DNA of 35,647 nt from Candidatus Micrarchaeia archaeon (lineage in GTDB: Archaea > Micrarchaeota > Micrarchaeia > Micrarchaeales > CABMGC01), in contig JBMFWW010000005.1 in assembly GCA_049964835.1 (NCBI GenBank), positions 1-35,647 of the forward strand, in the 5' to 3' direction. Both the position numbers and the translations under genes were made by a program. Below, piece after piece: positions 2,668-34,493 of the stretch (the stretch's first letter is position 1; each line of letters begins with the position of its first letter). Below the pieces are notes generated by a model. It saw nothing but the letters and a program-made list of their open reading frames with translations. It did not search any database and had not been told where the DNA came from.

Positions 2668-3624
2668 ATGAGAAAAGGTTCATTAGAATATTGGCCACAT
2701 AGGCGCGCTAAAAGACAAATGCCTAGAGTTAGGACCTTTGCAAATCAAAAAGATGCTGCTTTGTTAGGTTTTGTAGCTTTTAAAGCTGGAATGACACATT
2801 TATTAATGATAGATGACAGCGAATCACCTGCAAAAGGAACAGAGGTTTCAAGAGCTGTGACCGTTCTAGAAATTCCAAAGGTTTACATTTATGGTATTAG
2901 ATCATATAAAAAAGGATACATCTACAAAGAAATAGCCAATGAAGTTTACGATGCCAAATTAGCAACAAATGTAGGTATTAAAGCTACTAAAAACACAGAA
3001 CTTTCAAAGATAAAATCAAAATCTGATGCTCTTGTAGATATTGCTGCGTTAGCATATCTTGATGCAGGTTCATTAAGTTTTGGTAATAAAAGAATAATGC
3101 GTTTTGAGGTTCCTATAAGTGGATCAGATATAAATACAAAGCTTACATATGCAGAAAGTATACTAGGTAAAGAGGTAAAAATCTCTGATTTTATAAAACC
3201 TGGAGAGTATATTGACATAACCGCCATATCAAAAGGAAAAGGATGGGCAGGAGTAATAAAAAGATTTGGAGTTTCAAGGCAGTATAGAAAAGCAACCGGA
3301 AAGGTAAGGCACGTAGGTACTCTTGGAGCATGGCATCCTCCTAAAGTTCTTTTTACAGTTCCACATTCTGGTCACAAAGGTTATAACTACAGAACAGAAA
3401 TAAATAAAAGAGTAATAAAGGTAGGAAGTGAAAAGGACGTGAACACAATAAATATAAAAGGAGGATTTACAAATTATGGCGTTTTAAAGAATGACTTTAT
3501 AGTAATAGATGGAAGTATACCTGGCTCTTCAAAAAGATTAATAAGAATAAGAAAGGCTGTAAGAAGTACATCAAAAATAAAGGAGCCAAATGTCGTTTAT
3601 ACATCTTTAGAGTCTAAGCAGTGA
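2668..3624 (+). CDS. rpl3: 50S ribosomal protein uL3
   Basis: RKGSLEYWPHRRA, FKAGMTH, SKGKGWAGVIKRFG, RHVGTLGAWHP. Confidence 0.97.
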   Translation: MRKGSLEYWPHRRAKRQMPRVRTFANQKDAALLGFVAFKAGMTHLLMIDDSESPAKGTEVSRAVTVLEIPKVYIYGIRSYKKGYIYKEIANEVYDAKLATNVGIKATKNTELSKIKSKSDALVDIAALAYLDAGSLSFGNKRIMRFEVPISGSDINTKLTYAESILGKEVKISDFIKPGEYIDITAISKGKGWAGVIKRFGVSRQYRKATGKVRHVGTLGAWHPPKVLFTVPHSGHKGYNYRTEINKRVIKVGSEKDVNTINIKGGFTNYGVLKNDFIVIDGSIPGSSKRLIRIRKAVRSTSKIKEPNVVYTSLESKQ

Positions 3625-3629
3625 GCTAA

Positions 3630-4433
3630 ATGGAAGTAAATGTTTATAATATAAATGGAGAAAGTTCTGGAAAGATAAAGTTACCAGAGGTTTTCTCAGA
3701 AGAGTTCAGAGAGGATCTGATAAAAAGAGCAATACTAAGCGAGCAAAGCAAAGAGCAGCAGCCACAAGGCCATTATCTAATGGCGGGTTTAAACACTACC
3801 GCTGTTTATGTAGGAAAGTACTCCGGATATAGAAGAGGAAGACATATGGGTATAGCCATAAGACCAAGGCAAAAACTTGCTGCAGGGGCAATGGGAGCTG
3901 TTAGAAGAATACCTTCTAGTGTAAAAGGAAAAAGAGCACATCCACATAAGATAGAAAAGATAATTGAAGAGAGAATAAATAAAAAAGAGTATGTAAAAGC
4001 AATAAAGTCCGCAATAGCCGGCTCCGCAAATAACATTGCATTGAAGAAAAAGCATATCTTTCAAGAAGAGTTCCATTCACCAGTAATAATAGATGATTCT
4101 ATTGAAAGTATTTCAAAATCAAAGGAAGTTATGCAATTAATTAAAAAATTAGGCCTATCTAATGATATTGAAAAGTCACATAAACCACGTTTAAGGAAAG
4201 GACTTTCAAGAAGTTCAAACAAAAGACGTTTTAGAAAGTCAATATTAATTGTTACAAAACCAAATTCAAAGATAGAAAAAGCAGGCAGAAATATTCCTGG
4301 AGTTGATGTTTGTACAATAGACTCATTGACAGTTAATAAATTAGCACCTGGAGGTTTGCCTCGTTTTGCAATATGGAGCAAAGGAGCTGTAGAGTCCATA
4401 GAAACACAATTAAAAAATAAGGAAAATAGTTGA
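3630..4433 (+). CDS. rpl4: 50S ribosomal protein uL4
   Basis: LPEVF...REDLIKRA, GKRAHP, RNIPGVDV, LAPGGLPR; operon position. Confidence 0.95.
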   Translation: MEVNVYNINGESSGKIKLPEVFSEEFREDLIKRAILSEQSKEQQPQGHYLMAGLNTTAVYVGKYSGYRRGRHMGIAIRPRQKLAAGAMGAVRRIPSSVKGKRAHPHKIEKIIEERINKKEYVKAIKSAIAGSANNIALKKKHIFQEEFHSPVIIDDSIESISKSKEVMQLIKKLGLSNDIEKSHKPRLRKGLSRSSNKRRFRKSILIVTKPNSKIEKAGRNIPGVDVCTIDSLTVNKLAPGGLPRFAIWSKGAVESIETQLKNKENS

Positions 4434-18732: not shown

Positions 18733-21700
18733 ATGGTTAAAAAATTCAATAGGAAAAATAATCAAAAGGTTAAAAATAGTTTAACTTATTTTTTAATTCT
18801 TATTTTATTGCTTATGATTACTTTTTCTTTTTTTAATTCAATAAAAACATCAAAATCTACATTATCAGACAAAACGGGATCATTTTCTAAAAATACAATA
18901 AATATAAATGCAAATAACCAAAGTTCAAAAAGTAAAACTTCAACTCAAACAACATTTACCAAAACTGGCTATTTATTTCCATCAAACTACTACTCTTATT
19001 ATGATGTTTTATTGGTGTGCAATCCTGCAAGTCAAGAAAGTATAGATGTTTGCAATTACTTTAAAAATGCAAGAGTAAGCGAAGGCTTCAACGTATCAAA
19101 CATACTAAATCTTACAAATATACCTACCTCTGAATACGTTAACAATACAGTTACAAACTCTATACTCGAACAAATAAAAGAAAAGTTAAATACATCACAT
19201 AACATACAGTATATTGTAACAACGGTAGGTGTTCCGTTAGATGATAATGCATACCCTGCGCTTGATGGAGTAGGATCATCAATCGATTCATTGATTGCAG
19301 ACAATCTTACAAATAATCCAGCAGATCAATGTTCAAACTGCTATGGTGATGTTTATAATCCTTATTACTTATATATATATCGTCAACTTTTTGCTTATAA
19401 CCCCGGATATATAAATCAGTATACTCTTGAAAATTATACATTCAACAACACAAATCCAAATTATAAAGGGATGTATATAGTTACTAGATTAGATGGGCCA
19501 ACACTTCAAAGTATTTATAACTTAATAAACGATGCAACTAACGCTTCAGATGCAGATAAGCAAGGCTATGTGCTTTTAATAAGCAATACCACTAACTCTG
19601 GTTATCAAAATTTATATGGGCAAGATATAGCAATTACTAACATTTCACTAAATCAAATGGGTAGAAAGGCAGTTGATGTTTTTTCAACATTCCCAATAGG
19701 CTTGAAAAATTTAAGTAGTTATCTTTCATGGGGCTCAAATTGTGGTTGTTCTGCAGGCCAAAATTCAAGTAAATGGGATTACGGTTTTGTTCCTGGAGCT
19801 ATAGGTGAAACGTATGTTTCTACAAGCGCAAGAACATTATTACAATATCCTTGGACTGGTGGACAATCCTTAATATCTGATTTAGTAATGGATAACATTA
19901 CTGGTGTAAGCGGATATGTAAGTGAACCTTATGCTTATTGCTTAGAACAATCAGAAATGTTATATCCTCTTTATTTTGAAGGTTTTACTCTTGGAGATGC
20001 TTTTTATGCGGCAATGCCATGCTTAGAGTGGAAAAGCGTAGTTATAGGCGATCCTAAGGCACACGCCGTAATATTTACTGCAACTGCTCCAGTCCAACCT
20101 ACTCTGAAACAACATTTTTCACCTGAAAATGTTATTTCCGGAGAAAATGTAACAGCAACACTGAATATCTATAATGAAAGTCCATATTTTTCGTTTGTAA
20201 ATTCCCAATCAAGTAGTTACTCTATAAATCTAAGGGAAGGAACTTCTCAATCTTGTGCAAATGATAATAACTATTCTATTGATGAATATTCTTATAGTAT
20301 TGGAATTTTTAATATAACGCATTCAGTATCCATCACAGCTCCAGTATATCTTTGCTTTTATTTACAACAAGTCGCAAGTACTCAAAACGGTTCGTTTTTG
20401 TATTCTCCAGTGATGTATACTCCCACAGTTCCAATATCTTATAATGGCCAAAGTCCATCAACATCCACATCAACAAGTATCTCAACAAGCACATCAACCT
20501 CAACATCTACATCAACAATAAAAACAACTATCTCAACATCAACAAGCACATCAACCTCAACAAGTACATCAACCTCAACAAGTACATCTGCCTTAACATC
20601 TACCTCAACATCTACATCAACAAGCACATCAACCTCAACAAGTACATCAACTTCAACATCAATAACATTGACTACACAAGCAACTACTTCAATAATTCCA
20701 ACAACAGCATCTACAACAGTTTTAACAACTACTTCAACTACATCAACAATACAAACAACCTCGCAAACAACACAACAAGGTTCAATAACAGTTCCAACAA
20801 CTACGGTTATACCATCCGTATCAACAAATCTACCTAATTTATTAGCAACAAATGGCGCAAATATAGGCATAGCTCCAGAGTTAACTCCAGAATATGGGCA
20901 GTATGATAATGGTTTTAATGTATTTCCATTTTATGTTAACTTTAATGGAAGTAAATTAGGAAATAAGCTGGTGTCAAATCAGCAGTGTCCTAATGGGATT
21001 GCAATAAATAACGGATTTACTGCAAATACATCATTTTGTAAATCACAGTTTATCGGAGTTCCAGATTTAAATGCATCCATAAATAATGGAATTATAATAT
21101 CATATGTTAAAAATGTTTCAATAAATAACGGATATATAATCTGGTGCTGGTTACATACAGGTGGTTATTGTAGTCCTTCAGAAGAGGTATCAAATGGCAT
21201 CATAAATTTATACTCGGATTCAATAGGCCAAGACGACAGTTTATACCCTATAGATATTATAACATCTAACAGCATAGAAAGTTATATCTATTATACCTTA
21301 AGTTATCTTGGAGTTGCGACTTATCCACCAAATGGTCAAATGCCAGTAACAACATATGGGAATGTAGAAACTTTTGGAAACTCTCAGTGTGGGAATATAC
21401 CCAATTCATTAAAACCATTGACCGGTTATTGTATACCATTAAAGATAGAAAACAATCAAGTACTTAAATTTTCAAATAATAGCACTTTGATGATATCATT
21501 CAACGCATTAAATTACAGTAAATATCTTGCTCCTAACTTACAAAATATCTATTTATATAATAAGAGTTCAGGAAAAACAATACCGTCCTGGATACAGGGA
21601 AATGCTTCGAACGGGCAACAATATACAAATCTTAACTATGCTTCGAATATACTAATTTGGGTTAAACTGCCTGAATCTATTATAGGATTTTCTTCAGATC

Positions 21701-23382
21701 AAAATATTGCAATCGGAATAGGTAGTTATGTTCAACAATCTACAACAACTTCCATACCTTCTTCAGGTGGCGGTGGAAGCGCTGGTGGTGGGGGCCTACC
21801 ACATCCTACAGTAACGCAAACTTCTTATGGCTATTTGGTTAGTAATATCGGTGTACCTGCAACATTTAATTTTGAATTTTGCGGAGAAGATGTTTTAGGA
21901 ACACTAAACTTTATAAGTCCAGATACTTCTGGAATAACACTTAATAATATTCCATATACTATAATATCAAATTCAACTCCAATTTCTGTATTAAATAATC
22001 AGAGTTGTTCAATGCAATTATATAATATTTCATATATACNNNNNNNTATAATATCAAATTCAACTCCAATTTCTGTATTAAATAATCAGAGTTGTTCAAT
22101 GCAATTATATAATATTTCATATATCCCGTTACAGCAAACAGTTGCAATAAAGTTTTTTGAAGTTCACAAAATCTCACAATCAAATAATACTATAAATACT
22201 ACAAAAAATATTACAATAACAAAACCTACAAACATAACAATTTCAGAGTCTTCAAAGAATATTACATTTAAAAATAGAGTAGTAAATACAACCGTAAGTA
22301 TATCAAATATTACTCCAACAATAATCCATAGCGTTAGCAACAACAATAACGTTTCATTATATATATCTTCAAAGTCAAATACAAACACAAAATTGAGTTT
22401 CTCAGTTCCTCCACTTTCTGATTATCCACTACCTAATAAATATAAAACTACAATTTCATTAGTAAACGTTACATTAAATAAAAGTTCAAATGTATCTACA
22501 AAATTAAACTCATCTTACAACTGCAGTATACCTTCAAATACAATAGAACCATTTATCTATACAAACGATCAATGGGTTCAAATTAATAATTATACAATAA
22601 ATACAAAATTATGTATAATATCGGTTGTAATACCAAAAGATCCAATAATTGGAATTTTCACTAATTACACATTAAGTACACCATCTAATAAATCTATCAC
22701 TTCTACACAAACAACTACTCAAATAACATCAGTAATAACAAGTACCTACAACTCAACCAGTAAAATAATAACTAAAAACGGTACCTCTACAGCAATAACT
22801 ATTTCAAGTAACAATCCATTATATCTTGTTGTGTTTATAATTGCCGCATTGCTTGTAATTGCATATATACTTAAAGAAAAAATTCTAAAACAAAAACCAA
22901 CAAAACCTACTAATATTCAAAATGAACTTAAAGAAGATAGAACCATTCAAAACAATCAACAAACAAACTATATCAGAGAAAGTAATGATACAGAAAGAAA
23001 CATAGAAAATGATAACAAAAAAGAACTAGATAATAATGAAATTAGTAATGCCGAAGAAATTACAAATAATGAAAATAAAGAAAGCTCTGATGAAACCAAT
23101 ACAGAAAATACTGAAGGTCAAACTGATTCTAGCGAAGAAAATAATAATATAAATAATCAAGAAAATACTAAAGACGAAATAGATACTAATCCCGATGAAG
23201 TAAATACTCAAGAAAAATCTAGCGAAGAAGAATCTCAAGATGAGAATAAAAAAGAAAACCTTGAAAATAATAACAGTTTAGACAAAGAAAATAATCCTAA
23301 TTCGGATTCAACTCAAAACACAAATATCGAACCTAAAAATAACGATGATACTGACTATAATTCTGATTCACACGACTTTTAA
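18733..23382 (+). CDS. Large membrane-anchored surface protein: TIGR03790-like domain, Ser/Thr linker, DUF2341-like segment, C-terminal TM helix, acidic/Asn-rich tail
   Basis: N-terminal signal; VTRLDGPT, SWGSN, PGAIGETYVSTSAR, GVSGYVSEPY, GFTLGDAFY, VIGDP; YLAPNLQNI...IPSWI...IWVKLP; TM LYLVVFIIAALLVIAYIL. Confidence 0.8.
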   Translation: MVKKFNRKNNQKVKNSLTYFLILILLLMITFSFFNSIKTSKSTLSDKTGSFSKNTININANNQSSKSKTSTQTTFTKTGYLFPSNYYSYYDVLLVCNPASQESIDVCNYFKNARVSEGFNVSNILNLTNIPTSEYVNNTVTNSILEQIKEKLNTSHNIQYIVTTVGVPLDDNAYPALDGVGSSIDSLIADNLTNNPADQCSNCYGDVYNPYYLYIYRQLFAYNPGYINQYTLENYTFNNTNPNYKGMYIVTRLDGPTLQSIYNLINDATNASDADKQGYVLLISNTTNSGYQNLYGQDIAITNISLNQMGRKAVDVFSTFPIGLKNLSSYLSWGSNCGCSAGQNSSKWDYGFVPGAIGETYVSTSARTLLQYPWTGGQSLISDLVMDNITGVSGYVSEPYAYCLEQSEMLYPLYFEGFTLGDAFYAAMPCLEWKSVVIGDPKAHAVIFTATAPVQPTLKQHFSPENVISGENVTATLNIYNESPYFSFVNSQSSSYSINLREGTSQSCANDNNYSIDEYSYSIGIFNITHSVSITAPVYLCFYLQQVASTQNGSFLYSPVMYTPTVPISYNGQSPSTSTSTSISTSTSTSTSTSTIKTTISTSTSTSTSTSTSTSTSTSALTSTSTSTSTSTSTSTSTSTSTSITLTTQATTSIIPTTASTTVLTTTSTTSTIQTTSQTTQQGSITVPTTTVIPSVSTNLPNLLATNGANIGIAPELTPEYGQYDNGFNVFPFYVNFNGSKLGNKLVSNQQCPNGIAINNGFTANTSFCKSQFIGVPDLNASINNGIIISYVKNVSINNGYIIWCWLHTGGYCSPSEEVSNGIINLYSDSIGQDDSLYPIDIITSNSIESYIYYTLSYLGVATYPPNGQMPVTTYGNVETFGNSQCGNIPNSLKPLTGYCIPLKIENNQVLKFSNNSTLMISFNALNYSKYLAPNLQNIYLYNKSSGKTIPSWIQGNASNGQQYTNLNYASNILIWVKLPESIIGFSSDQNIAIGIGSYVQQSTTTSIPSSGGGGSAGGGGLPHPTVTQTSYGYLVSNIGVPATFNFEFCGEDVLGTLNFISPDTSGITLNNIPYTIISNSTPISVLNNQSCSMQLYNISYIXXXIISNSTPISVLNNQSCSMQLYNISYIPLQQTVAIKFFEVHKISQSNNTINTTKNITITKPTNITISESSKNITFKNRVVNTTVSISNITPTIIHSVSNNNNVSLYISSKSNTNTKLSFSVPPLSDYPLPNKYKTTISLVNVTLNKSSNVSTKLNSSYNCSIPSNTIEPFIYTNDQWVQINNYTINTKLCIISVVIPKDPIIGIFTNYTLSTPSNKSITSTQTTTQITSVITSTYNSTSKIITKNGTSTAITISSNNPLYLVVFIIAALLVIAYILKEKILKQKPTKPTNIQNELKEDRTIQNNQQTNYIRESNDTERNIENDNKKELDNNEISNAEEITNNENKESSDETNTENTEGQTDSSEENNNINNQENTKDEIDTNPDEVNTQEKSSEEESQDENKKENLENNNSLDKENNPNSDSTQNTNIEPKNNDDTDYNSDSHDF
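20455..20660 (+). repeat. Degenerate tandem repeat encoding (ST)n
   Basis: Repeated ACATCAACCTCAACAAG(C/T) units. Confidence 0.9.
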
Positions 23383-25622: not shown

Positions 25623-25794
25623 TTATTAATAATTATATAACTAAAACTAAAATTGCCTTAACTGTTCTATACTATTACTTTTGGTGTTTTTTGTTATAAA
25701 AGTTATGGGTATATTCTAGTTACAAAACCTCCATAACCTTCTTTTTATATTTATTTTTTAATTTAGTTTGTTTTGGAAATCGTTTTTTTAACAA

Positions 25795-27726
25795 TTAGTG
25801 CTTTATTCCGAGTGTCATAAGTATAAATGCATATTTAAATGCTAGCGATTTATATCTTTCTTCATTTTTAGAACTCATTACATGTCCTCCTGAAATGTTT
25901 ATCCTCAATAATAATAAATTATTATCACTTTTCATTTTTCTCATTTTTGCAATAAATTTTAATACTTCCAAATAATAAACTTTTACATCATTTATTCCAA
26001 TAATTACAAGAATATTAGGATATCGTTGCGATTTAATATTTTCATAAGGAGAGTAAGACTTAATATAATTATAATACTTTTTTTTATTTGGGTTACCCCA
26101 TTCTTTATACTCTCTTATGGTAAATGGGCGTTTTTTATCTGATATTTTACTTAATAACTCTACAACTGGTGATGTCATTACTGCAGCTTTAAATAATTCT
26201 GGTCTTTTATTTATTACAGATCCGATAAGCAATCCACCGGCACTAGCTCCTTCAATAACTAGTAACTCTTTAGATGTATATCTTTTAGCTATCAAATGTT
26301 CTGCACAGGCTACGAAATCATTAAACGTATTTTTCTTTTTTAATAATTTACCTTCTTGATACCATCGACTACCTTTTTCAGAACCTCCTCTAATATGTGC
26401 TATTCCAAAAATAACTCCTCTATCAAGCAAACTCAACCGCTCAACTGAAAATGTTGGTAAATAACAAATTCCATAAGCCCCATATCCCCAAAGTAACATC
26501 GGTTGCCTTTTATTTCTGTTTAACTCTTTTTTATAAATAATTGAAATAGGTATTTTATTTCCATCTTTCGCAGTAGCATAAATTTTTTCTGTTTTATAAT
26601 TAGAACTATTATACTTTTTTATTTTATCTATCTCATTTAATTTTAAAATATTATTATCCATATCATATTCCAATAATGATTTAGGAATGGTAAATGAGCT
26701 ATAAATCAAGCGTAAGTTTTTACTATTAAAATCTTGATATGTATCAAATGAAACGGTACACATTTTTTGGGGCATTTTAATAAATTTTTTAGTTCCTGTA
26801 ACTATATTTAAAACAATAATTTTATTTGTTGCGTCTGAAATAACTTTAATTACTATATAATTACGAAATACCTTAAAACTATCTAATTTATTATTTTTAT
26901 TATTTGGAATTAACGTTTTCCAATTTTCTTTTAGTTTGTTATTAACTGGTGTTCTAACTAACTTAAAATTAGGCGCATTTTCATTTGTTAACATATAAAA
27001 ATATTTACCAAACTGTTCAATATAACATATACTTTTTTTGTTCTTATTGAAAAGTTTTAAATCATTCTTATAATCCCCTATTTGGATAAATCTTATTTCT
27101 GTAGAATCAATCCCAATCGAATATAAAAAAAGAAATTTTTCACTTTCAGATTTTTTAACAGATAAATAGTAATAAGCGTTTTTTTCTTCATATAATAACT
27201 TATTCTTTTTAAATTTATCTATAAAATTTGAAATATAAGCTCTATAAGATCTATATATTTTATCAATAGTTGTATAAACTATTGTGTTATCATCTAACCA
27301 CTCTAACTCCCACACTCCGGTTATTTTTTTAATAATTTTATCTGTACTTATTTTTTTAATATATGTTATATACTCTTCTGTTCCTGTTGTATTAACTGAA
27401 TAAGCAATAAATGTGTTATTTGTACTAATTTTAAAATCATCAAATAAAAAGTATTTATGTCCTTCTGCAATTTTATTAAGATCTAAAATAAGTTCCTCTT
27501 TTTTATTCAAGGAGTTTTTTCTAAAATATGTCTTATACTGCGCACCGTTTTTAATTTTCCAATAATACTCATACTCTTTTATTTTTATAACATTTGAAAA
27601 ACTAATACTTTTATATCGATTTTTAATCTCATTATATATTTTATTTTGTAATTCAGAAGTCTGTGCCATTATTGAATTAGTATACTCATTTTCTTTTTTT
27701 ATATATGCCTTAATCGTTTTTACCAT
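25795..27726 (-). CDS. S9A peptidase (oligopeptidase B/prolyl oligopeptidase family)
   Basis: GYGAYG, SLLDRG, HIRGGSE, KKNTFNDF; triad GASAGG, NDVKV, GGH; N-terminus possibly frameshifted. Confidence 0.9.
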   Translation of the reverse strand: MVKTIKAYIKKENEYTNSIMAQTSELQNKIYNEIKNRYKSISFSNVIKIKEYEYYWKIKNGAQYKTYFRKNSLNKKEELILDLNKIAEGHKYFLFDDFKISTNNTFIAYSVNTTGTEEYITYIKKISTDKIIKKITGVWELEWLDDNTIVYTTIDKIYRSYRAYISNFIDKFKKNKLLYEEKNAYYYLSVKKSESEKFLFLYSIGIDSTEIRFIQIGDYKNDLKLFNKNKKSICYIEQFGKYFYMLTNENAPNFKLVRTPVNNKLKENWKTLIPNNKNNKLDSFKVFRNYIVIKVISDATNKIIVLNIVTGTKKFIKMPQKMCTVSFDTYQDFNSKNLRLIYSSFTIPKSLLEYDMDNNILKLNEIDKIKKYNSSNYKTEKIYATAKDGNKIPISIIYKKELNRNKRQPMLLWGYGAYGICYLPTFSVERLSLLDRGVIFGIAHIRGGSEKGSRWYQEGKLLKKKNTFNDFVACAEHLIAKRYTSKELLVIEGASAGGLLIGSVINKRPELFKAAVMTSPVVELLSKISDKKRPFTIREYKEWGNPNKKKYYNYIKSYSPYENIKSQRYPNILVIIGINDVKVYYLEVLKFIAKMRKMKSDNNLLLLRINISGGHVMSSKNEERYKSLAFKYAFILMTLGIKH

Positions 27727-27853
27727 GTTTATCTTCCACTAATGAACAATTATCCGCTTCATTTTTTAACTGTTTTTGAATTTTTCTTTATCGATAATAC
27801 TTTTTTCATGTAATCTTATAAAATATATAAACACATCATTTATTAATTTAATC

Positions 27854-29083
27854 TTATTCAGCAAATAATGGTTTTATATGTAGTGGGCATAATGGCAAAT
27901 CATTGTTTATATTTTCTTTATAATTCAAAACAGATCCAGTACGACAGTAATCAAAATGCTCACATTTTTTACATACATTCGGTATACTTGCGTTTCTTAA
28001 CATTTCTAAATTTTTATTATTATTCCATAATTTGCTTATACCCTCTTGAAAGACATTGCCCAAAAAAGCTTTATTATGTGGTAAATCATATGTAGTGCTA
28101 TAAGTTGATCCGTCATACAAAATATGTAAAACTCTTCTAGTATCTATTGTTCCATATAAAATATTCGATAAGTTCTTATCATATTCTAGATCCATATCCT
28201 CATAAATCAGAAAAGGGAAATTTGTACGTGAAGTTATCTTAACATTATATTTTTTACCAATTATCATGGCTTTTTTAAGAATTTCTTTAAAATCCCAAAA
28301 ATCTATTCCATCTTTTTGGTTAATAGAACCAAAATCACTTTTACTCCAATGAAATAAAGTTATTGCTTTTATACCATTATCACACAAAAACTTTATAGTT
28401 TCTAATACTGAATCTTTATTATTTTTCGTAATTAAAGTTGTAACATGCGTTTTTAATCCCTTATTTATTACTCTGTCCAAAAAATTCAGTTCTTTATTTA
28501 GTGCTACGTTATTATTTACAATATCTGCATGTATTTTAGGCAAATGTGAGTGAAATGATAAACTAAATGATATATCATATTCAACTATCTTATTTATTAG
28601 ATTTTCATTATACATTGTTCCATTGCTTGATATTGAAATAATCAAATCTCTTTTATAAGCGATATCCAAAAGCCATCCCAAATCCCTATATAATAAGGGT
28701 TCGCCACCTAGAATAGATAAAGAAAAAATACCATTTTCAACTAATTCATTCATTATGCTAATAGCATTTTTTCTACTTAAGCCATTTATTTTATTATCTA
28801 ATCTATTCCCAATATAACAAAATTTACATCTTTCGTTACAAAATAATGTAGGATATAAATCTACTGTAGTTGGAGCTGAAAGTATATCACTTCTGAGAAT
28901 CTTGCTTTTTAGAAATTTAATTTCGGATGAATCAAAAAATTCATATTTATTATTTTTTGCTACTTCAACTCCCCTACTAAAATCTAAATTTTTATTAGTT
29001 TTATAAGTGTATATTTTATCCTATTTATTATCATAAAATAAATAACCAAAAAACTCCTTTCTAACAAATAATCTGTATACCAT
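27854..29083 (-). pseudogene. Radical SAM/SPASM peptide maturase with RRE-like N-terminus, interrupted by an in-frame TAG at 29021-29023 (codon 21)
   Basis: Frame extends upstream of the track ORF: MVYRLFVRKEFFGYLFYDNK*DKIYTY...LSAPTTVDLYPTLFCNERCKFCY (CxxxCxxC 28817-28840), GGEP, SSNG, C-terminal CKKCEHFDYC...CP. Confidence 0.85.
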
Positions 29084-29112
29084 AAATATCTAGTTGGTTA
29101 TTAATATGTTGT

Positions 29113-29247
29113 TTATTTTCTTTTGATTGGACTATAACTTGGCCACTTTTCTGATCTTGGCATACCAAATTGTTTACTATTCACGGCCTCTTCAATTTTT
29201 ATAACTGAAATTATCTTATTTTCAGTTACAATTTTTCTTAATTTCAT
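29113..29247 (-). CDS. 44-aa candidate RiPP precursor MKLRKIVTENKIISVIKIEEAVNSKQFGMPRSEKWPSYSPIKRK
   Basis: GGTGA SD at 29252-29256, ATG 29247, TAA 29113; ends 29 nt before the radical SAM start; absent from the ORF track. Confidence 0.75.
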   Translation of the reverse strand: MKLRKIVTENKIISVIKIEEAVNSKQFGMPRSEKWPSYSPIKRK

Positions 29248-29276
29248 TATTTCACCAATATTTATTATTCTTTCCT

Positions 29277-29290
29277 GTATAAATACTTTC
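29277..29290 (-). promoter_or_regulatory. BRE/TATA promoter for the peptide-rSAM unit
   Basis: Minus strand GAAAGTATTTATAC about 30 nt before ATG 29247; resembles the rpl15e promoter AAAGTATTTAAATA. Confidence 0.55.
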
Positions 29291-29407
29291 TACCATAATT
29301 ATTAGATTCTTTAGAAAAAAAAACAAAAAGTATTATACTAATTTAGAAATTTTCTAATTTAGTCAAATAAATATGTTGTTAGAGTAAATTACAAACTAAA
29401 TAGTTCT

Positions 29408-30322
29408 CTATGACAATTCAGAAAGCTTTTTCATATTCATTCCAAATTTTTCAGAAAGAAGGAAATTTAAAATATCCTTACATTCAAAAACATGTCCAGA
29501 ACCGATAACCAACGCAACACTCTTAGTTGTTTCAAGTTCCTTTAAAACTCGCTCTATAATATGGGTATTTCTATATGCTTCAAGATAAGCGCTAGCCTTG
29601 TTTATTGGATATTTAACACAATATGGAAATGGAACTGTAAGCTCTTCATAATTTTGTATATCAGAAAAACTCTTTCCAGTATTTTTAATATTATTATGCT
29701 CAATAAAAGTATTAATCCCTGCATCTATCTCTGGCGAATACTGTTTCATCAACTCTAAAAATTGGTTTTTGTAAGAGTATAGAGAACCATTTTCATTTAA
29801 AAACTCCCATTTAAGTACATCTAGTGTTTTTTCATAAACCTCTTCATTACTCTTATCTAACATATTGCCCTTAAAGTACCTATATATGCTTACAAAGTTC
29901 CAATAAACTCCAAGCTCAATTCCTGTATACTGCTTTTTGTCATATTCCGAAAGTATTTTCAAATAAGTGGCTCTTGAAAGATTAATTCCAAGAACCGTTG
30001 ATTCAAATAAAAAGGACAACCTAGCTCCTATACCTACCTCATCCCCCTGAGCTACTAATTTTTCTATTCTGCTCTGTGGCGTGTTCTCATCAATCTCAAG
30101 AAATGTAGTTTTAGGCCGAAATCTTTTGAATACGCTTGAAAATGCATCTATAGTATCTCCAGTTAGCTGCTGGTGTCTATGGCCTAAGAACAAAAACGTT
30201 TTTTCATTATTATAATAAAGTACACTGTTATCTAAAAATAACTCTTTTTGTGTCATGATTTTATAGTTGGTCTTTGGTATATGCTTGTATATAAGGTATT
30301 CATAAAATTCTTCTGGCGCCAT
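29408..30322 (-). CDS. Hypothetical protein, TraB/Tiki/EreA-like fold suspected
   Basis: FLGHRH, RPKTTFLE, RNTHII...ALVIGSGH match the H/E/RN/GxxH pattern of that superfamily. Confidence 0.5.
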   Translation of the reverse strand: MAPEEFYEYLIYKHIPKTNYKIMTQKELFLDNSVLYYNNEKTFLFLGHRHQQLTGDTIDAFSSVFKRFRPKTTFLEIDENTPQSRIEKLVAQGDEVGIGARLSFLFESTVLGINLSRATYLKILSEYDKKQYTGIELGVYWNFVSIYRYFKGNMLDKSNEEVYEKTLDVLKWEFLNENGSLYSYKNQFLELMKQYSPEIDAGINTFIEHNNIKNTGKSFSDIQNYEELTVPFPYCVKYPINKASAYLEAYRNTHIIERVLKELETTKSVALVIGSGHVFECKDILNFLLSEKFGMNMKKLSELS

Positions 30323-30431
30323 AAGTATTACTTTATCATTACTAAAAATATTAAAATATAAGTTAGTTTATCAATATATCCCATTAAAACAAAAGGTATA
30401 TATTCTTATCCTTAAAAACATTATTGGGGAC

Positions 30432-30800
30432 AAGTTTCAATTTCCAAAAGAAAAAGAGGTAGATTCTATGTTAAAACGATGTTTTTATTGGTATCCTACA
30501 AAAATGATCAAATATTTAAATTTTTGGCTTAAAAATAATAAAGTAATATCTTTTAATAGAATACCGCAATATATTTCATCTTTAAATGCTGGAATTAAAC
30601 AATTAAAAGATAAAAATTATCATATTTTCTATGTGGATGTCTCTTTAAATGAAATTAAAAAAGCTGGATTTACGACAGGCAAGGTAATCATTCCAGAATT
30701 ACAACCTTTATACCTTGCTGAAGAATCAAAAATGCTTTATAGTATACATGGTGGAAATATTAAACCCGATAAAAATCTTAAACCACAACCGTTTTGTTAA
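30432..30800 (+). pseudogene. C-terminal fragment of a YcaO-family cyclodehydratase
   Basis: YVDVSLNEIKKAGFTTGKVIIPELQPL and Pro-rich end KPQPFC; only about 110-120 aa; N-terminal ATP-binding part absent. Confidence 0.8.
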
Positions 30801-30811
30801 AAGTGTTTATT

Positions 30812-31513
30812 ATGTTAAAAGACGTTGAGGAATTTTATAAAAAAACTAAACTTACTGAAATATCTCTTCCTAAAGGTAAAGCACCAATAGAATATATTCA
30901 TGTATTCCATAAAGAATATCCAAGATTTTATTCTATAAAATTACCACGCAGTTCAAAAGGCGGTGAGTATAATAAATTATTAAATACACGAAAATCTGTC
31001 AGACTTTTTTCAAATAAATTTATTTCAATTCAAACATTGGCAAATATTTTTAAATCATGTGCAATTATAAAAAACAATCCTGAGAGAAGGTGTTATCCTT
31101 CAGCAGGTGTAAGGTTTCCAATAGAAATATATCTGGTAGCGTTCAGAATAAAAAATTTAAAACCAGGAGCATACCATCTAAATATTAAAAAATTTTCATT
31201 AGAGTTGTTATTAAAAACTAATTTAAGAAAATATGAACAGGAATTAGTATCTCCTTTCCTAAATAATACCGCAGGTATTATAATATTGACATCAGCAATA
31301 TCACGTTCTGAAGTTAAATATGGATATAAATCATATCCGTTTTCATTATTAGAAGCCGGACATATAAGTCAAAATATATTACTTTCTTGTACTAAATATA
31401 ATGTAGGTAGTTGTCCAGTAGGTTGATTTATAAATGATACTATTACAAAAATTTTAGATCTAACTGACGATGAGATTCCGTTAGAAACCATAGGTTTTGG
31501 ATATTCAATATAA
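30812..31513 (+). pseudogene. SagB/McbC-type azoline dehydrogenase with in-frame TGA at 31424-31426
   Basis: RKSVR, RCYPSAG, KYGYKSY, LEAGHISQN; after GSCPVG* the frame continues FINDTITKILDLTDDEIPLETIGFGYSI to TAA 31513. Confidence 0.85.
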
Positions 31514-31528
31514 AGTTTAGGTATAAAA

Positions 31529-32770
31529 ATGAAAAATATAGTAATTAATTCAGATAAAATGTTTGATGGATACAAAATAACTGACAATGTTTCGATATTA
31601 ATAATTGATGGTATAATAACTAAGATAGGTAAAAGAGGTGAATTTAAAGGGAAAACATTAAATACTAAATTTATACTTCCTGGATTAATCGACATGCATA
31701 TACATTTGAGTACTTACGGTGGTTTGTATTATAAAAGTATAAAACTTATTCCTTATTTTAATAAAATGTTAATTTATAATGGCATAACTACAGTTAGAGA
31801 TTTAGGCAATTCTTTAAATAATGTTTATAATTTTGAACATTACGATGAACTTAAACCCAAAATTTTTTATTCTTTATTTTTAGATAGCGATAAACCATTA
31901 TGGAGTATGTCATTTATTATAAAAAATAAAAAACAAATACCTGAATTAATAAAAATGTACAGTGAAACAGGAATTAAATGGGTTAAAGCTTATCGAGGTA
32001 TTAATCCAAAAATATTAAAAGAAATTATAAAAGAAGCACATCATAGAGGGCTTAAAGTTGCAGGGGATTTATTAACTACAAAACCAATAGATGCAATTAA
32101 TATGAACATAGATACATTAGAACATGTTGTGATGTTAATAAATGAAACATATGGAAACAAAGATAAATCAATAGAAAAAATATATAAAAAATGGGCTAGT
32201 ATAAATTTGAATTCTAAAAGTATTGAAAAACTTATTAATAATTTAGTTATAAGTAAGACAGTACTATGTCCTACGTTAATTTTAAGCCAAATGGAATTGT
32301 TTCCTTCGTTAAAGTATTCAGAATATTTAAAAATCTTATTTCCATTAGATAAAATTTATACAAATAAAAAGACTAAGAATAATTTTAGTAAGATTAACTA
32401 TAGTGTTAGAAAAAACGCATTTAAAAATATGCTGAAATTAATTAAGAAGCTAAATGAAAACGGAGTAAAATTAATATCTGGAACTGATTCTGGAAATCCG
32501 TATATTGCCCCAGGTTTTTCAATGCATCAAGAACTAAAATTATTAGTAAATTGTGGTTTAACCCCAATCGAAGCATTAAAATGTGCAACAACTAATGCCG
32601 CTGCTGTTCTTGGAAATGAAAAAATAGGACAGATAAAAGATGGTTATAAAGCAGATATTATACTTTTAACAAAAGATGTTGAATATAATATAGCCAATAT
32701 AGATAAAATATCACATGTTATTTTAGATGGAAAAATTAAGAAGATTAATATTAAAAATCTTAGAAAATAG
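31529..32770 (+). CDS. Amidohydrolase-superfamily protein
   Basis: PGLIDMHIH, GITTVRDLG, WVKAY, LEH, GTDSG, ATTNAA, GYKAD. Confidence 0.9.
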   Translation: MKNIVINSDKMFDGYKITDNVSILIIDGIITKIGKRGEFKGKTLNTKFILPGLIDMHIHLSTYGGLYYKSIKLIPYFNKMLIYNGITTVRDLGNSLNNVYNFEHYDELKPKIFYSLFLDSDKPLWSMSFIIKNKKQIPELIKMYSETGIKWVKAYRGINPKILKEIIKEAHHRGLKVAGDLLTTKPIDAINMNIDTLEHVVMLINETYGNKDKSIEKIYKKWASINLNSKSIEKLINNLVISKTVLCPTLILSQMELFPSLKYSEYLKILFPLDKIYTNKKTKNNFSKINYSVRKNAFKNMLKLIKKLNENGVKLISGTDSGNPYIAPGFSMHQELKLLVNCGLTPIEALKCATTNAAAVLGNEKIGQIKDGYKADIILLTKDVEYNIANIDKISHVILDGKIKKINIKNLRK

Positions 32771-33220
32771 GAACTTGACAAATTAAATATCTTTGTGTTT
32801 ATAGTATTTTGTGGAATTTCTCTTCTCTTTTTGTCGTCGTAAGACGATTTACCGTTAGGCTCCTGAGCAACAGATACAACGAGTGCATCGGTCGCCTGCC
32901 AGGAGATGTATAAAATGAAATTATATGAGTCAAAGAATAAAATACTAGAGATTTGGGCAACAGCCCGGGTTATAGTCCAGAAATATGGGCATAGAAAGAA
33001 GTTTGCAAAGCATATTGTTGCATTTGTAATTAAACAAATGAAACATTTTACAGATGAGGAGCTTGCAGACTTTTTACTTGTGGATAAGATTGGTAAAATA
33101 TTAGGATATAAAAAGAGACCGCACGCATCAGTATTTTCCAAGGTTAGAAAAAGGTCTGATCCCAAAATTTTTGAGGATATGTATAATTGGTTTCTAAAAG
33201 AAAAGTATGTAGGAAGGCAG
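32771..33220 (+). mobile_element. Truncated IS remnant (IS4/IS5-like transposase N-terminal region; DDE domain missing)
   Basis: EELADFL...ILGYKKRPHASVFSKVRKR resembles a transposase N-terminal HTH region; GAACTTGACAAA directly after the amidohydrolase stop is a possible left end. Confidence 0.6.
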
Positions 33221-33400
33221 ATAAAAATAAGAGTAGAAAAAGATAAGGCCTTTGTACAAGATCTAAGAACCAATATGATATTTTTAACTACCGCGGATGT
33301 TGCAAAACGAATAAACATCATTTTAAATAAGACCTTTGAAGAGGCTTCTCGCTCCGATCCTGATATTCTTAAGTTATTTGAATACAGAAAAAGTGCGTAA
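32906..33400 (+). CDS. Chimeric ORF: transposase N-terminus fused in frame to an RRE/PqqD-like segment
   Basis: C-terminal 59 aa IKIRVEKDKAFVQDLRTNMIFLTTADVAKRI...; stop lies 1 nt before the rSAM ATG. Confidence 0.5.
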   Translation: MYKMKLYESKNKILEIWATARVIVQKYGHRKKFAKHIVAFVIKQMKHFTDEELADFLLVDKIGKILGYKKRPHASVFSKVRKRSDPKIFEDMYNWFLKEKYVGRQIKIRVEKDKAFVQDLRTNMIFLTTADVAKRINIILNKTFEEASRSDPDILKLFEYRKSA

Positions 33401-33401
33401 C

Positions 33402-34442
33402 ATGGAAAGGGTATATCCTGATTTTCCATTTAGGGTAGAGTTTGAAGTAACCAGTGTTTGCAATCTTGATTGTAAGTACTGTTATGCAAAACCGTTTACA
33501 TGGAAAACGCCTTCATTTGAAAATATAGAGTATCTCTTTAAAAAAACAAAAGAGGAAGCAGATCCTTTTGAGACTGTGCTTGTAGGCGGAGAGCCATTTA
33601 TAAGAACAGATATGGTTTCATTAATTGAACTTGCAAATAATGTATTCAGAAGAGGCGTTCAAATAAGTACTAATGGAACATTGTTATCAAGGCTTGATAA
33701 AAAGCAGCTCATACGCTTAAAGGATGCAGTAAATGATGGGGTTTCACTGCAGGTATCTATAGATAGTTTAAATCCAAGTATAAATGACATTACCAGAGGA
33801 AAGACCAAAGAGTCAATAGACGGCATAAATACACTTGAAAAGAGCGGCATACCCTTCTCCGTAGGGATAGTATTTACAAATGTAAATTCTAATGATATAG
33901 TTGCAACAACTTCTAAACTCATAAAAGAATACTCATATTTAGTTTCGTTAAATCTAGAGCCTCTCCAGCCAACTTCTATACTGGGCGCTGAGTACTTTGA
34001 ATTAAAGCAGGAAAGCACCGAAATGAGACGACTCTTTAATTTAGTTAATGGTATTATTAAAGTTCATGGGAGGGACGAATTAAAACTTTATGGTATAGTA
34101 GAGGACTGCTCTGAATCTGTAAAGTTTGAGACGCCTGTTCTTGACAAATACGCATTTAAAACCTGCACCGCTGGCCTTGTTAGAGCTGCAGTTTTTGTTG
34201 ATGGTTCAGTTACTCCTTGTTCATTAATACGTGATATAAAAATTGGAAATCTATATACAGATTCATGGGTAGGTATATGGCAGCGTTCCAGAGAAAGATT
34301 TGAGTCTATAAAAGATAGTGGTGTAAGCCAGTGTGCAATAAATCTTCTCCATGAGTCTAAAAGAAATGATAGCTCATTTGTATCACTTGCGGAGGTTGTT
34401 GAAAGAATAGAAAAAAGAAAAAGTAGAGTTCTTTCAAAGTAA
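33402..34442 (+). CDS. Radical SAM protein with SPASM/twitch domain
   Basis: CNLDCKYC, GGEP, STNG, QVSID, CTAG...DGSVTPC...IGNL; ATG 33402 preferred over TTG 33336. Confidence 0.9.
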   Translation: MERVYPDFPFRVEFEVTSVCNLDCKYCYAKPFTWKTPSFENIEYLFKKTKEEADPFETVLVGGEPFIRTDMVSLIELANNVFRRGVQISTNGTLLSRLDKKQLIRLKDAVNDGVSLQVSIDSLNPSINDITRGKTKESIDGINTLEKSGIPFSVGIVFTNVNSNDIVATTSKLIKEYSYLVSLNLEPLQPTSILGAEYFELKQESTEMRRLFNLVNGIIKVHGRDELKLYGIVEDCSESVKFETPVLDKYAFKTCTAGLVRAAVFVDGSVTPCSLIRDIKIGNLYTDSWVGIWQRSRERFESIKDSGVSQCAINLLHESKRNDSSFVSLAEVVERIEKRKSRVLSK

Positions 34443-34493
34443 GAGAAGCATAGAAAAATATTTATGTATAAGTAGCAATTCAATACTGTTATA

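Follow-up and report, generated by a model that had tools for sequence, protein, structure and literature searches.

The described system closest to the locus reported here is streptide, whose minimal unit is a peptide (StrA/SuiA) plus one radical S-adenosylmethionine (SAM) enzyme (StrB/SuiB; TIGR04080; structures 5V1Q, 5V1S and 5V1T), and whose bond joins the C-beta of a lysine to C7 of a tryptophan. The present locus was encountered in a stretch of 35,647 bp from a Candidatus Micrarchaeia archaeon (contig JBMFWW010000005.1), analysed at its full length and called the window below. It is composed of a 44-amino-acid (aa) open reading frame (ORF) and, immediately downstream, a gene for a radical-SAM enzyme, for which SuiB was the best match among solved structures both by profile and by predicted fold. 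The ORF and the enzyme very probably constitute a precursor-maturase pair. The reading preferred here, at a probability of roughly 0.55, is that such pairs install a streptide-like [Arg/Lys]-x3-Trp macrocycle and that the window carries a damaged copy of the system in an accessory island. As in streptide, a basic residue stands four positions before a tryptophan near the C-terminus, and peptide plus one enzyme form the minimal unit. In contrast to streptide, arginine replaces lysine in the clade of the window, and the hosts are archaea and scattered bacteria.

Radical-SAM enzymes acting on Trp with other motifs have also been described. WprB, which forms a Trp-C5 to Arg-C-gamma link, likewise does without the cysteines of auxiliary cluster I (Aux I) (PMC11851443); precedent thus exists both for a cyclophane synthase with one auxiliary cluster and for a bond between Trp and Arg. 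This likeness was drawn from the published description. Unlike the window peptide, WprA displays a W-P-R motif, with tryptophan first, three residues long and present in three repeats; and unlike the window cassette, WprB requires a separate protein, WprC (PMC11851443). The WprB precursors listed in Table S7 of that paper bore no resemblance to peptides of the window family. WgkB from the tryglysin pathway (NF050035) is a Trp-Lys crosslinking radical-SAM enzyme, and its motif, given as W-G-K in the same source (PMC11851443), also begins with tryptophan, in contrast to the window family. In a literature search, no description of the peptide-enzyme family of the window and no characterised modified peptide from a DPANN archaeon was encountered; a survey from 2025 only predicts clusters for peptides made by ribosomes and modified after translation (RiPPs) across archaea (PMC12144867). 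A DPANN (Micrarchaeota-type) host, as proposed in an earlier note made from the letters of the window alone, was supported, locus L002 of G002, a genome in the same order, carrying the same ORFs as L007 from Micrarchaeota. The features on which the comparison depends are the following.

29113-29247, minus strand: putative precursor peptide gene, 44 aa, with central motif IKIEEAVNSKQFG and core MPRSEKWPSYSPIKRK, conserved in relatives
29252-29283, minus strand: GGTGA (29252-29256) and TTTATA (29278-29283), possible ribosome-binding and TATA elements
27854-29083, minus strand: gene for the radical-SAM peptide maturase, 409 codons when its stop is read through, starting 29 bases after the peptide gene
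28817-28840, minus strand: CX3CX2C cluster motif (Cys82, Cys86 and Cys89, read-through numbering, computed from the ATG at 29083), present in 13 of 13 family sequences
27887-27973, minus strand: CX2CX5C...X18...C, holding the sole four invariant C-terminal cysteines, enough for a single auxiliary cluster
29021-29023, minus strand: in-frame TAG at codon 21 of the maturase gene, where homologues P0002 and P0003 have Glu

The 44-aa ORF was recovered with the sequence given in the earlier note, devoid of cysteine and carrying both W-P-S and Y-S-P as described there. The reported upstream elements were also found, GGTGA lying 4 bases before the ATG and TTTATA 31-36 bases upstream of it. The composite pattern TTTATA-N18-30-GGTGA-N3-8-ATG occurred once in the window for 0.09 expected, and 9 of 100 shuffled sequences also reached one occurrence; having been defined post hoc, with the site already seen, this pattern counts for little. 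The peptide had been presented as unannotated, which is correct insofar as it bears no family name, but it already figures in the protein collection as predicted protein P0121, two relatives of which list NCBI among their sources. No NCBIfam match was obtained for any of the seven peptides scanned, and no Pfam match for the window peptide.

Relatives of the peptide comprised P0122-P0124, which are 44-45 aa long and 73-80 % identical to it, and the more distant P0126-P0128, L086, L087 and L007. When 1.84 billion proteins were searched with a profile built from seven peptides, six matches were obtained at E <= 0.001: five short family peptides, of which P0126-P0128 were new, and an unrelated protein of 1469 aa; a word-indexed search with the peptide profile returned nothing beyond relatives already found. 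When the ten peptides (window and nine relatives) were anchored on tryptophan, a variable N-terminus was followed by a short conserved C-terminal motif, N-x3-F-G-x2-[K/R]-x3-W, with fixed spacing and with the tryptophan kept in all ten. Arg31 and Trp35 of the window peptide fill the invariant basic and Trp positions. Half of the family (window, P0122-P0124 and P0126) displayed R-x3-W and continued as W-P-[S/D]-Y-[S/T/K]-P, while the five peptides with K-x3-W ended one to three residues past Trp (WP, WP, WI, WS and WPKT), exactly one residue following it in four (L086, P0127, L087 and P0128). The tyrosine and second triplet were therefore present in 5/5 members of the Arg-type sub-clade and absent from the other 5/10. 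Eight of the ten peptides lacked cysteine, which excludes a thioether as the shared reaction. Judged from these relatives, the 44-aa ORF is a conserved gene.

A motif-bearing peptide was seen directly upstream of an enzyme homologue in four loci, with a gap of 29 bases in the window, 32 in L086 and 72 in L087; in L007, which belongs to the same order and is from Micrarchaeota, no gap separates the peptide from the enzyme ORF as called, the two being adjoining or overlapping. Four further pairs were deduced only from contigs of equal size: the contigs of P0122-P0124 (3538, 36609 and 2419 bases) have the same lengths as the contigs of the closest enzyme homologues, and by the same token P0126 has an apparent partner enzyme only 55 % identical. 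Peptides were 73-80 % identical where enzymes were 85-87 % identical, and the peptide was kept next to enzymes whose identity ranged from 87 % to 38 %, in every case just upstream and in the same orientation. With four loci seen and tryptophan kept in 10/10, the earlier proposal that the small ORF is a precursor belonging with the radical-SAM enzyme was supported.

A sister family displayed a comparable arrangement. Directly upstream of a related enzyme, an ORF ending in G-[F/L]-x-K-[S/G]-S-W was found in five loci, which are listed here by the position of that ORF.

L089, 1221-1343: sister precursor, recognised by its upstream-ORF motif
L090, 5446-5685: sister precursor, same motif
L092, 5540-5716: sister precursor, same motif
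L093, 1110-1340: sister precursor, same motif
L010, 3591-3875: sister precursor, same motif

The enzymes were 27-38 % identical in L089, L090, L092 and L093 and 33 % in L010/L088, these last two loci being duplicate records of one and the same sequence. Another ORF of L010 (3239-3427) was dropped as precursor candidate, the directly adjacent ORF at 3591-3875 bearing the sister-family motif. In both families, then, a tryptophan near the C-terminus is preceded, at a distance of three or four positions, by a basic residue, and since the sister precursors also hold Lys and Trp, basic residue and tryptophan appear as the common denominator.

The enzyme gene matched PF04055 (2e-19) and, less strongly, the SPASM domain PF13186 (2e-05). 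The SPASM assignment of the earlier note was thus retained as a domain match, but not as a full cysteine set: a canonical SPASM domain has seven C-terminal cysteines, while only four are invariant here (C371, C374, C380 and C399), bringing the invariant cysteines of the family to seven with the three of CX3CX2C. This last motif is shared with SuiB. Conversely, three positions occupied by cysteine in SuiB, which we take to be the Aux I ligands, are non-Cys in the window family and also lack cysteine in the sister family.

The N-terminal domain also departs from SuiB. It spans about 60 residues, and the alignment to SuiB begins only at SuiB residue 78. In the structure predicted by AlphaFold2 for P0002, a homologue with 87 % identity (predicted local distance difference test, pLDDT, 84.7; predicted template modelling score, pTM, 0.87), residues 1-58 formed six beta strands and no helix, and no Pfam match to PqqD or a RiPP recognition element (RRE; PF05402) was obtained in the enzyme, so that the RRE-like start described earlier was not borne out. 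A nearly invariant R-x-E-x-F-G motif marks this domain, R8, E10, F12 and G13 being invariant or nearly so. Its first strands aligned with the sister enzymes (L090 and L092), whose N-terminal domains are longer. In a Parcubacteria record (L008, 5587-7056), the domain is a separate 82-aa gene with R-K-E-P-F-G-G ahead of a 370-aa enzyme; a 46-aa ORF preceding it displays a stretch I-V-K-I-E-G-V-N like the window leader and has no tryptophan.

SuiB came first in both structural comparisons. The family profile, searched against all solved structures, placed SuiB (5v1q) first with E 1.6e-35, followed by SkfB with 3.5e-16, and the P0002 model best matched SuiB (5v1t) with template modelling (TM) scores of 0.75 and 0.71. 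The best NCBIfam model for the window enzyme was TIGR04080, 'KxxxW cyclic peptide radical SAM maturase', with 86.9 bits for a cut-off of 500. The enzyme is not a member of the StrB/SuiB family (TIGR04080). On the other hand, a new RiPP class, as announced in the earlier note, is too strong a term, given that the nearest solved relative is SuiB and that [K/R]x3W resembles the KxxxW of streptide. What emerges is a real, as yet uncharacterised, streptide-like family of precursors and maturases with a distinctive enzyme.

On the preferred reading, the short beta-only N-terminal domain with R-x-E-x-F-G would hold a strand-like part of the peptide (I-x-I-E...N-x3-F-G), and the radical-SAM cluster would generate a 5'-deoxyadenosyl radical. 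This radical would abstract hydrogen from the side chain of the basic residue found at W-4, which is Arg31 in the window clade and lysine in the others. The resulting carbon radical would add to the indole of Trp35, the single auxiliary cluster accepting an electron upon re-aromatisation, and the product would be a five-residue macrocycle of streptide type. The link between basic residue and tryptophan, taken by itself, is given about even odds. The WPxYxP tail, specific to the sub-clade, may carry a second modification, for instance on the tyrosine.

Several observations weigh against this reading. The donor position is occupied by arginine instead of lysine throughout the window clade (5/5), and no precedent for an Arg-x3-Trp link in the W-4 orientation was found in the literature. 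The enzyme has no auxiliary cluster at the Aux I position of SuiB and is only 16-19 % identical to it. N23, F27 and G28 are no less invariant than W35, and the actual modification site could lie among them. NCBIfam scores, all far below cut-off, were nearly tied for P0002 (StrB 88 bits, pseudo-SAM/SPASM 87.5 and GeoRSP 87.3); for P0010, GeoRSP (97.2 bits) and, as second best, WgkB (96.8 for a cut-off of 650) beat StrB (89); and for P0011, GeoRSP was best with 99.5 bits while StrB was not listed at E <= 1e-15. NCBIfam alone does not decide the affiliation of the enzyme, and SuiB may owe part of its first rank to GeoRSP and WgkB not being among the solved-structure matches. Finally, one family locus (L006, Thermoplasmatota, with transposase-like flanks) displayed no motif-bearing ORF within 6 kb. 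The crosslink chemistry is a prediction made from sequences and a structural model.

Among the alternatives, the one that survives best, though unlikely, retains the pair but assigns it another chemistry, such as epimerisation, hydroxylation, an ether link or a link through the invariant Phe, Gly or Asn. The invariance of these residues speaks for it, as do the missing Aux I cysteines, which separate the enzyme from SuiB, and the spread of NCBIfam similarity over several families of differing chemistry. Against it stand the four-residue spacing between basic residue and tryptophan, fixed in 10/10 peptides, and the recurrence of Lys and Trp at a spacing of three in the sister family; a thioether, moreover, does not qualify as the shared reaction in view of the Cys-less peptides.

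The reading put forward in the earlier note is less probable still. It holds that a triceptide-like enzyme forms a three-residue cyclophane on each of the triplets W-P-S and Y-S-P, and that the neighbouring S9 peptidase cuts after K34 to free WPSYSP(IKRK). Triceptides indeed share with the window sub-clade an aromatic-led triplet arrangement (W-P-S/D and Y-S/T/K-P), and W-P-x-Y-x-P was found in 5/5 sub-clade peptides, including the divergent P0126. The conservation of WPxYxP expected in the small ORFs beside enzyme homologues therefore held within the sub-clade but not family-wide. A Trp-X-X triplet, which triceptides need, is unavailable in the 4/10 peptides that have a single residue past Trp, so that a Trp-X-X cyclophane does not qualify as the family reaction; nor does the second triplet, tyrosine being absent from half of the family. 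The nearest solved fold is moreover that of SuiB. No triceptide maturase model figured among the 25 NCBIfam matches shown for the window enzyme, and the AmcB model was encountered for P0011 only, with 60.5 bits for a cut-off of 425.

The other half of this reading concerns the third gene of the row.

25795-27726, minus strand: S9A serine peptidase, oligopeptidase-B-like, 643 aa, frame intact, 127 bases after the radical-SAM gene

The three co-directional genes (44-aa ORF, radical-SAM gene and S9A peptidase) are real, and Pfam and coordinates agreed with the order radical-SAM then S9A given earlier. The peptidase matched PF02897 (3.5e-60) and PF00326 (1.3e-57) and aligned over residues 7-637 with oligopeptidase B (PDB 7NE7, E 7.9e-114), scoring about 385 bits to oligopeptidase B and about 200-220 to prolyl oligopeptidases. 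It shares with oligopeptidase B the beta-propeller and alpha/beta-hydrolase domains and the Ser-Asp-His motifs, but its N-terminal part has about 33 residues fewer. Its score to the oligopeptidase B equivalog NF007511 was 413.9 bits for a cut-off of 1313. GxSxGG, D and GH stretches, presumably the catalytic triad, matched those of oligopeptidase B in the alignment, in agreement with the intact triad reported before.

An intact oligopeptidase-B-like enzyme, in the same island and orientation and, like the maturase, not found in the 10 congeners searched, would suit a role in release of the product. However, K34, after which the cut is proposed, is replaced by Ser in the remaining four peptides of the sub-clade, and K25 is absent in P0126. 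No homologue of the peptidase was found in the other 164 related loci (tblastn, E <= 1e-5), and it does not appear to be a conserved partner; the genes 3' of the enzyme differ in other family loci. Within the taxonomic family, an S9 gene was present in 7 of 117 other genomes, was only 27-29 % identical and was never accompanied by a maturase match. The assignment as leader peptidase accordingly found no conserved synteny in the related loci covered. This neighbour is most likely unrelated island cargo, and its participation in the pathway is unlikely.

That the small ORF is no substrate at all, but either arose by chance or encodes a small regulatory or accessory protein that travels with the enzyme, is very improbable: a complex prediction for enzyme family (A1) and peptide family (A4), with a score of 0.14 for a mark of 0.32, speaks neither for nor against peptide-enzyme binding, but the peptide accompanies enzymes of widely differing identity in a constant position, has the layout of a variable N-terminus ahead of a short conserved C-terminal motif, and sits in a 58-codon open stretch for which chance, at 26 % GC, was roughly estimated at ~0.5 % per frame position.

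Returning to the streptide-like pair, the copy in the window seems to be defective. The frame opened by the ATG at 29083 meets TAG at codon 21 and then remains open for 388 codons. At this place the sequence of the two 409-aa homologues (87 % and 85 % identical) is ...FYDNKEDKIYTYK..., and that of the window is ...FYDNK*DKIYTYK.... Without read-through, the first ATG, GTG or TTG start lies at 28753, past the CX3CX2C motif. TAG as a sense codon was considered and rejected: TAG ends 84 of the 500 frames of >=200 codons genome-wide. No tRNA with a CUA anticodon was present among the 31 tRNAs found in the genome, and reading through TAG in the region 27.7-35.6 kb gave other genes only short extensions. 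The 20 residues preceding the stop hold R8, E10, F12 and G13. Because TAG is an ordinary stop here and conserved residues precede it, the enzyme is most likely inactive as assembled, and the pathway is probably dead in the window genome in its assembled form.

The family was rare. In the order (248 genomes), five matches to the maturase were obtained at E <= 1e-40, and by their ORFs only G000, G002 and G250 were family members; the matches in G100 and G278 were rejected as other radical-SAM enzymes. Within the taxonomic family, the 117 genomes other than that of the window gave no maturase match. Relatives of the enzyme were distributed over Micrarchaeota, Thermoplasmatota and one Acidobacteriota genome. 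In viral contigs, 17 loci gave weak partial matches only (23-45 % identity), and none was a family member. Such rarity together with scattered relatives fits a mobile cassette, and the distribution is consistent with a two-gene unit moving between lineages.

It is conceivable, if doubtful, that the intact relatives make an Arg-x3-Trp C-C macrocycle, with a bond so far undescribed for this orientation and ring size, by means of an RRE-less enzyme with one auxiliary cluster, which would be the first characterised modified peptide from DPANN archaea, with possible dealings with a host and a second ring on WPxYxP. As a test case the family is compact, comprising two genes and ten natural substrates, in which the proposed donor is Lys or Arg and the ring context differs. 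An enzyme without one auxiliary cluster and without the usual recognition domain bears on how peptides are recognised and how the oxidation is completed. The window genome itself is of more modest significance, its maturase being interrupted and its cassette being cargo of a variable island.

This island was delimited by comparison with congeners.

25623-34493, no strand: accessory island, 8.9 kb, between DnaG and a VIT1-family gene, part of it low in GC
29408-30322, minus strand: gene for a 304-aa protein that belongs to no known family, upstream of the peptide gene and in the same orientation

The window is an entire contig of a genome of 806 kb (46 contigs, 31.9 % GC). GC content fell to 24.5-26.5 % at 26-32 kb of the window. 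In congeners G284, G100 and G209, VIT1 follows DnaG directly, without insert, while G344 carries ~9.9 kb of different cargo at the same spot. The DnaG-VIT1 junction thus appears as a variable hotspot (L184-L187), empty in the first three; the cargo of G344, judged by eye only, comprises AbiE-like toxin-antitoxin genes and a glycosyltransferase. Repeats were considered as island borders and rejected, the search having given only AT-rich chance matches, and a scan for bacterial-type promoters and terminators, unsuited to an archaeon, revealed no enrichment.

On the minus strand the genes run head to tail in the order 304-aa protein, 44-aa ORF, radical-SAM gene and S9A peptidase. The 304-aa protein had no Pfam or NCBIfam match and no homologue in related loci by tblastn. 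An Atlas search returned mostly unnamed clusters for it, with weak leads to DUF5694 and Cofac_haem_bdg (0.87-0.88, below the reliable level). This protein and the S9 peptidase each formed a single-member cluster in the protein collection.

The island also harbors a second radical-SAM/SPASM gene (33336-34442, plus strand), whose best NCBIfam models were ScmE (84.6 bits) and WgkB (81.5), both below cut-off. G344 retains just the last 44 codons of this gene (91 % identical; L185 903-1034), beside VIT1. At 30468-31426 (plus strand) lies the relic of a thiazole/oxazole-type cluster. Its 110-aa ORF matches the SagD/YcaO model (TIGR03604, 377 positions, 5e-08) at positions 293-343 only, is preceded by stops, and shares an overlap with the beginning of a SagB-family dehydrogenase of 210 aa, which ends at profile position 145 of 173. 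Outside the island, a 1549-aa ORF without Pfam match occupies 18733-23382 (plus strand); as the homologues of its flanking genes are only ~300 bases apart in G284, it represents another insertion.

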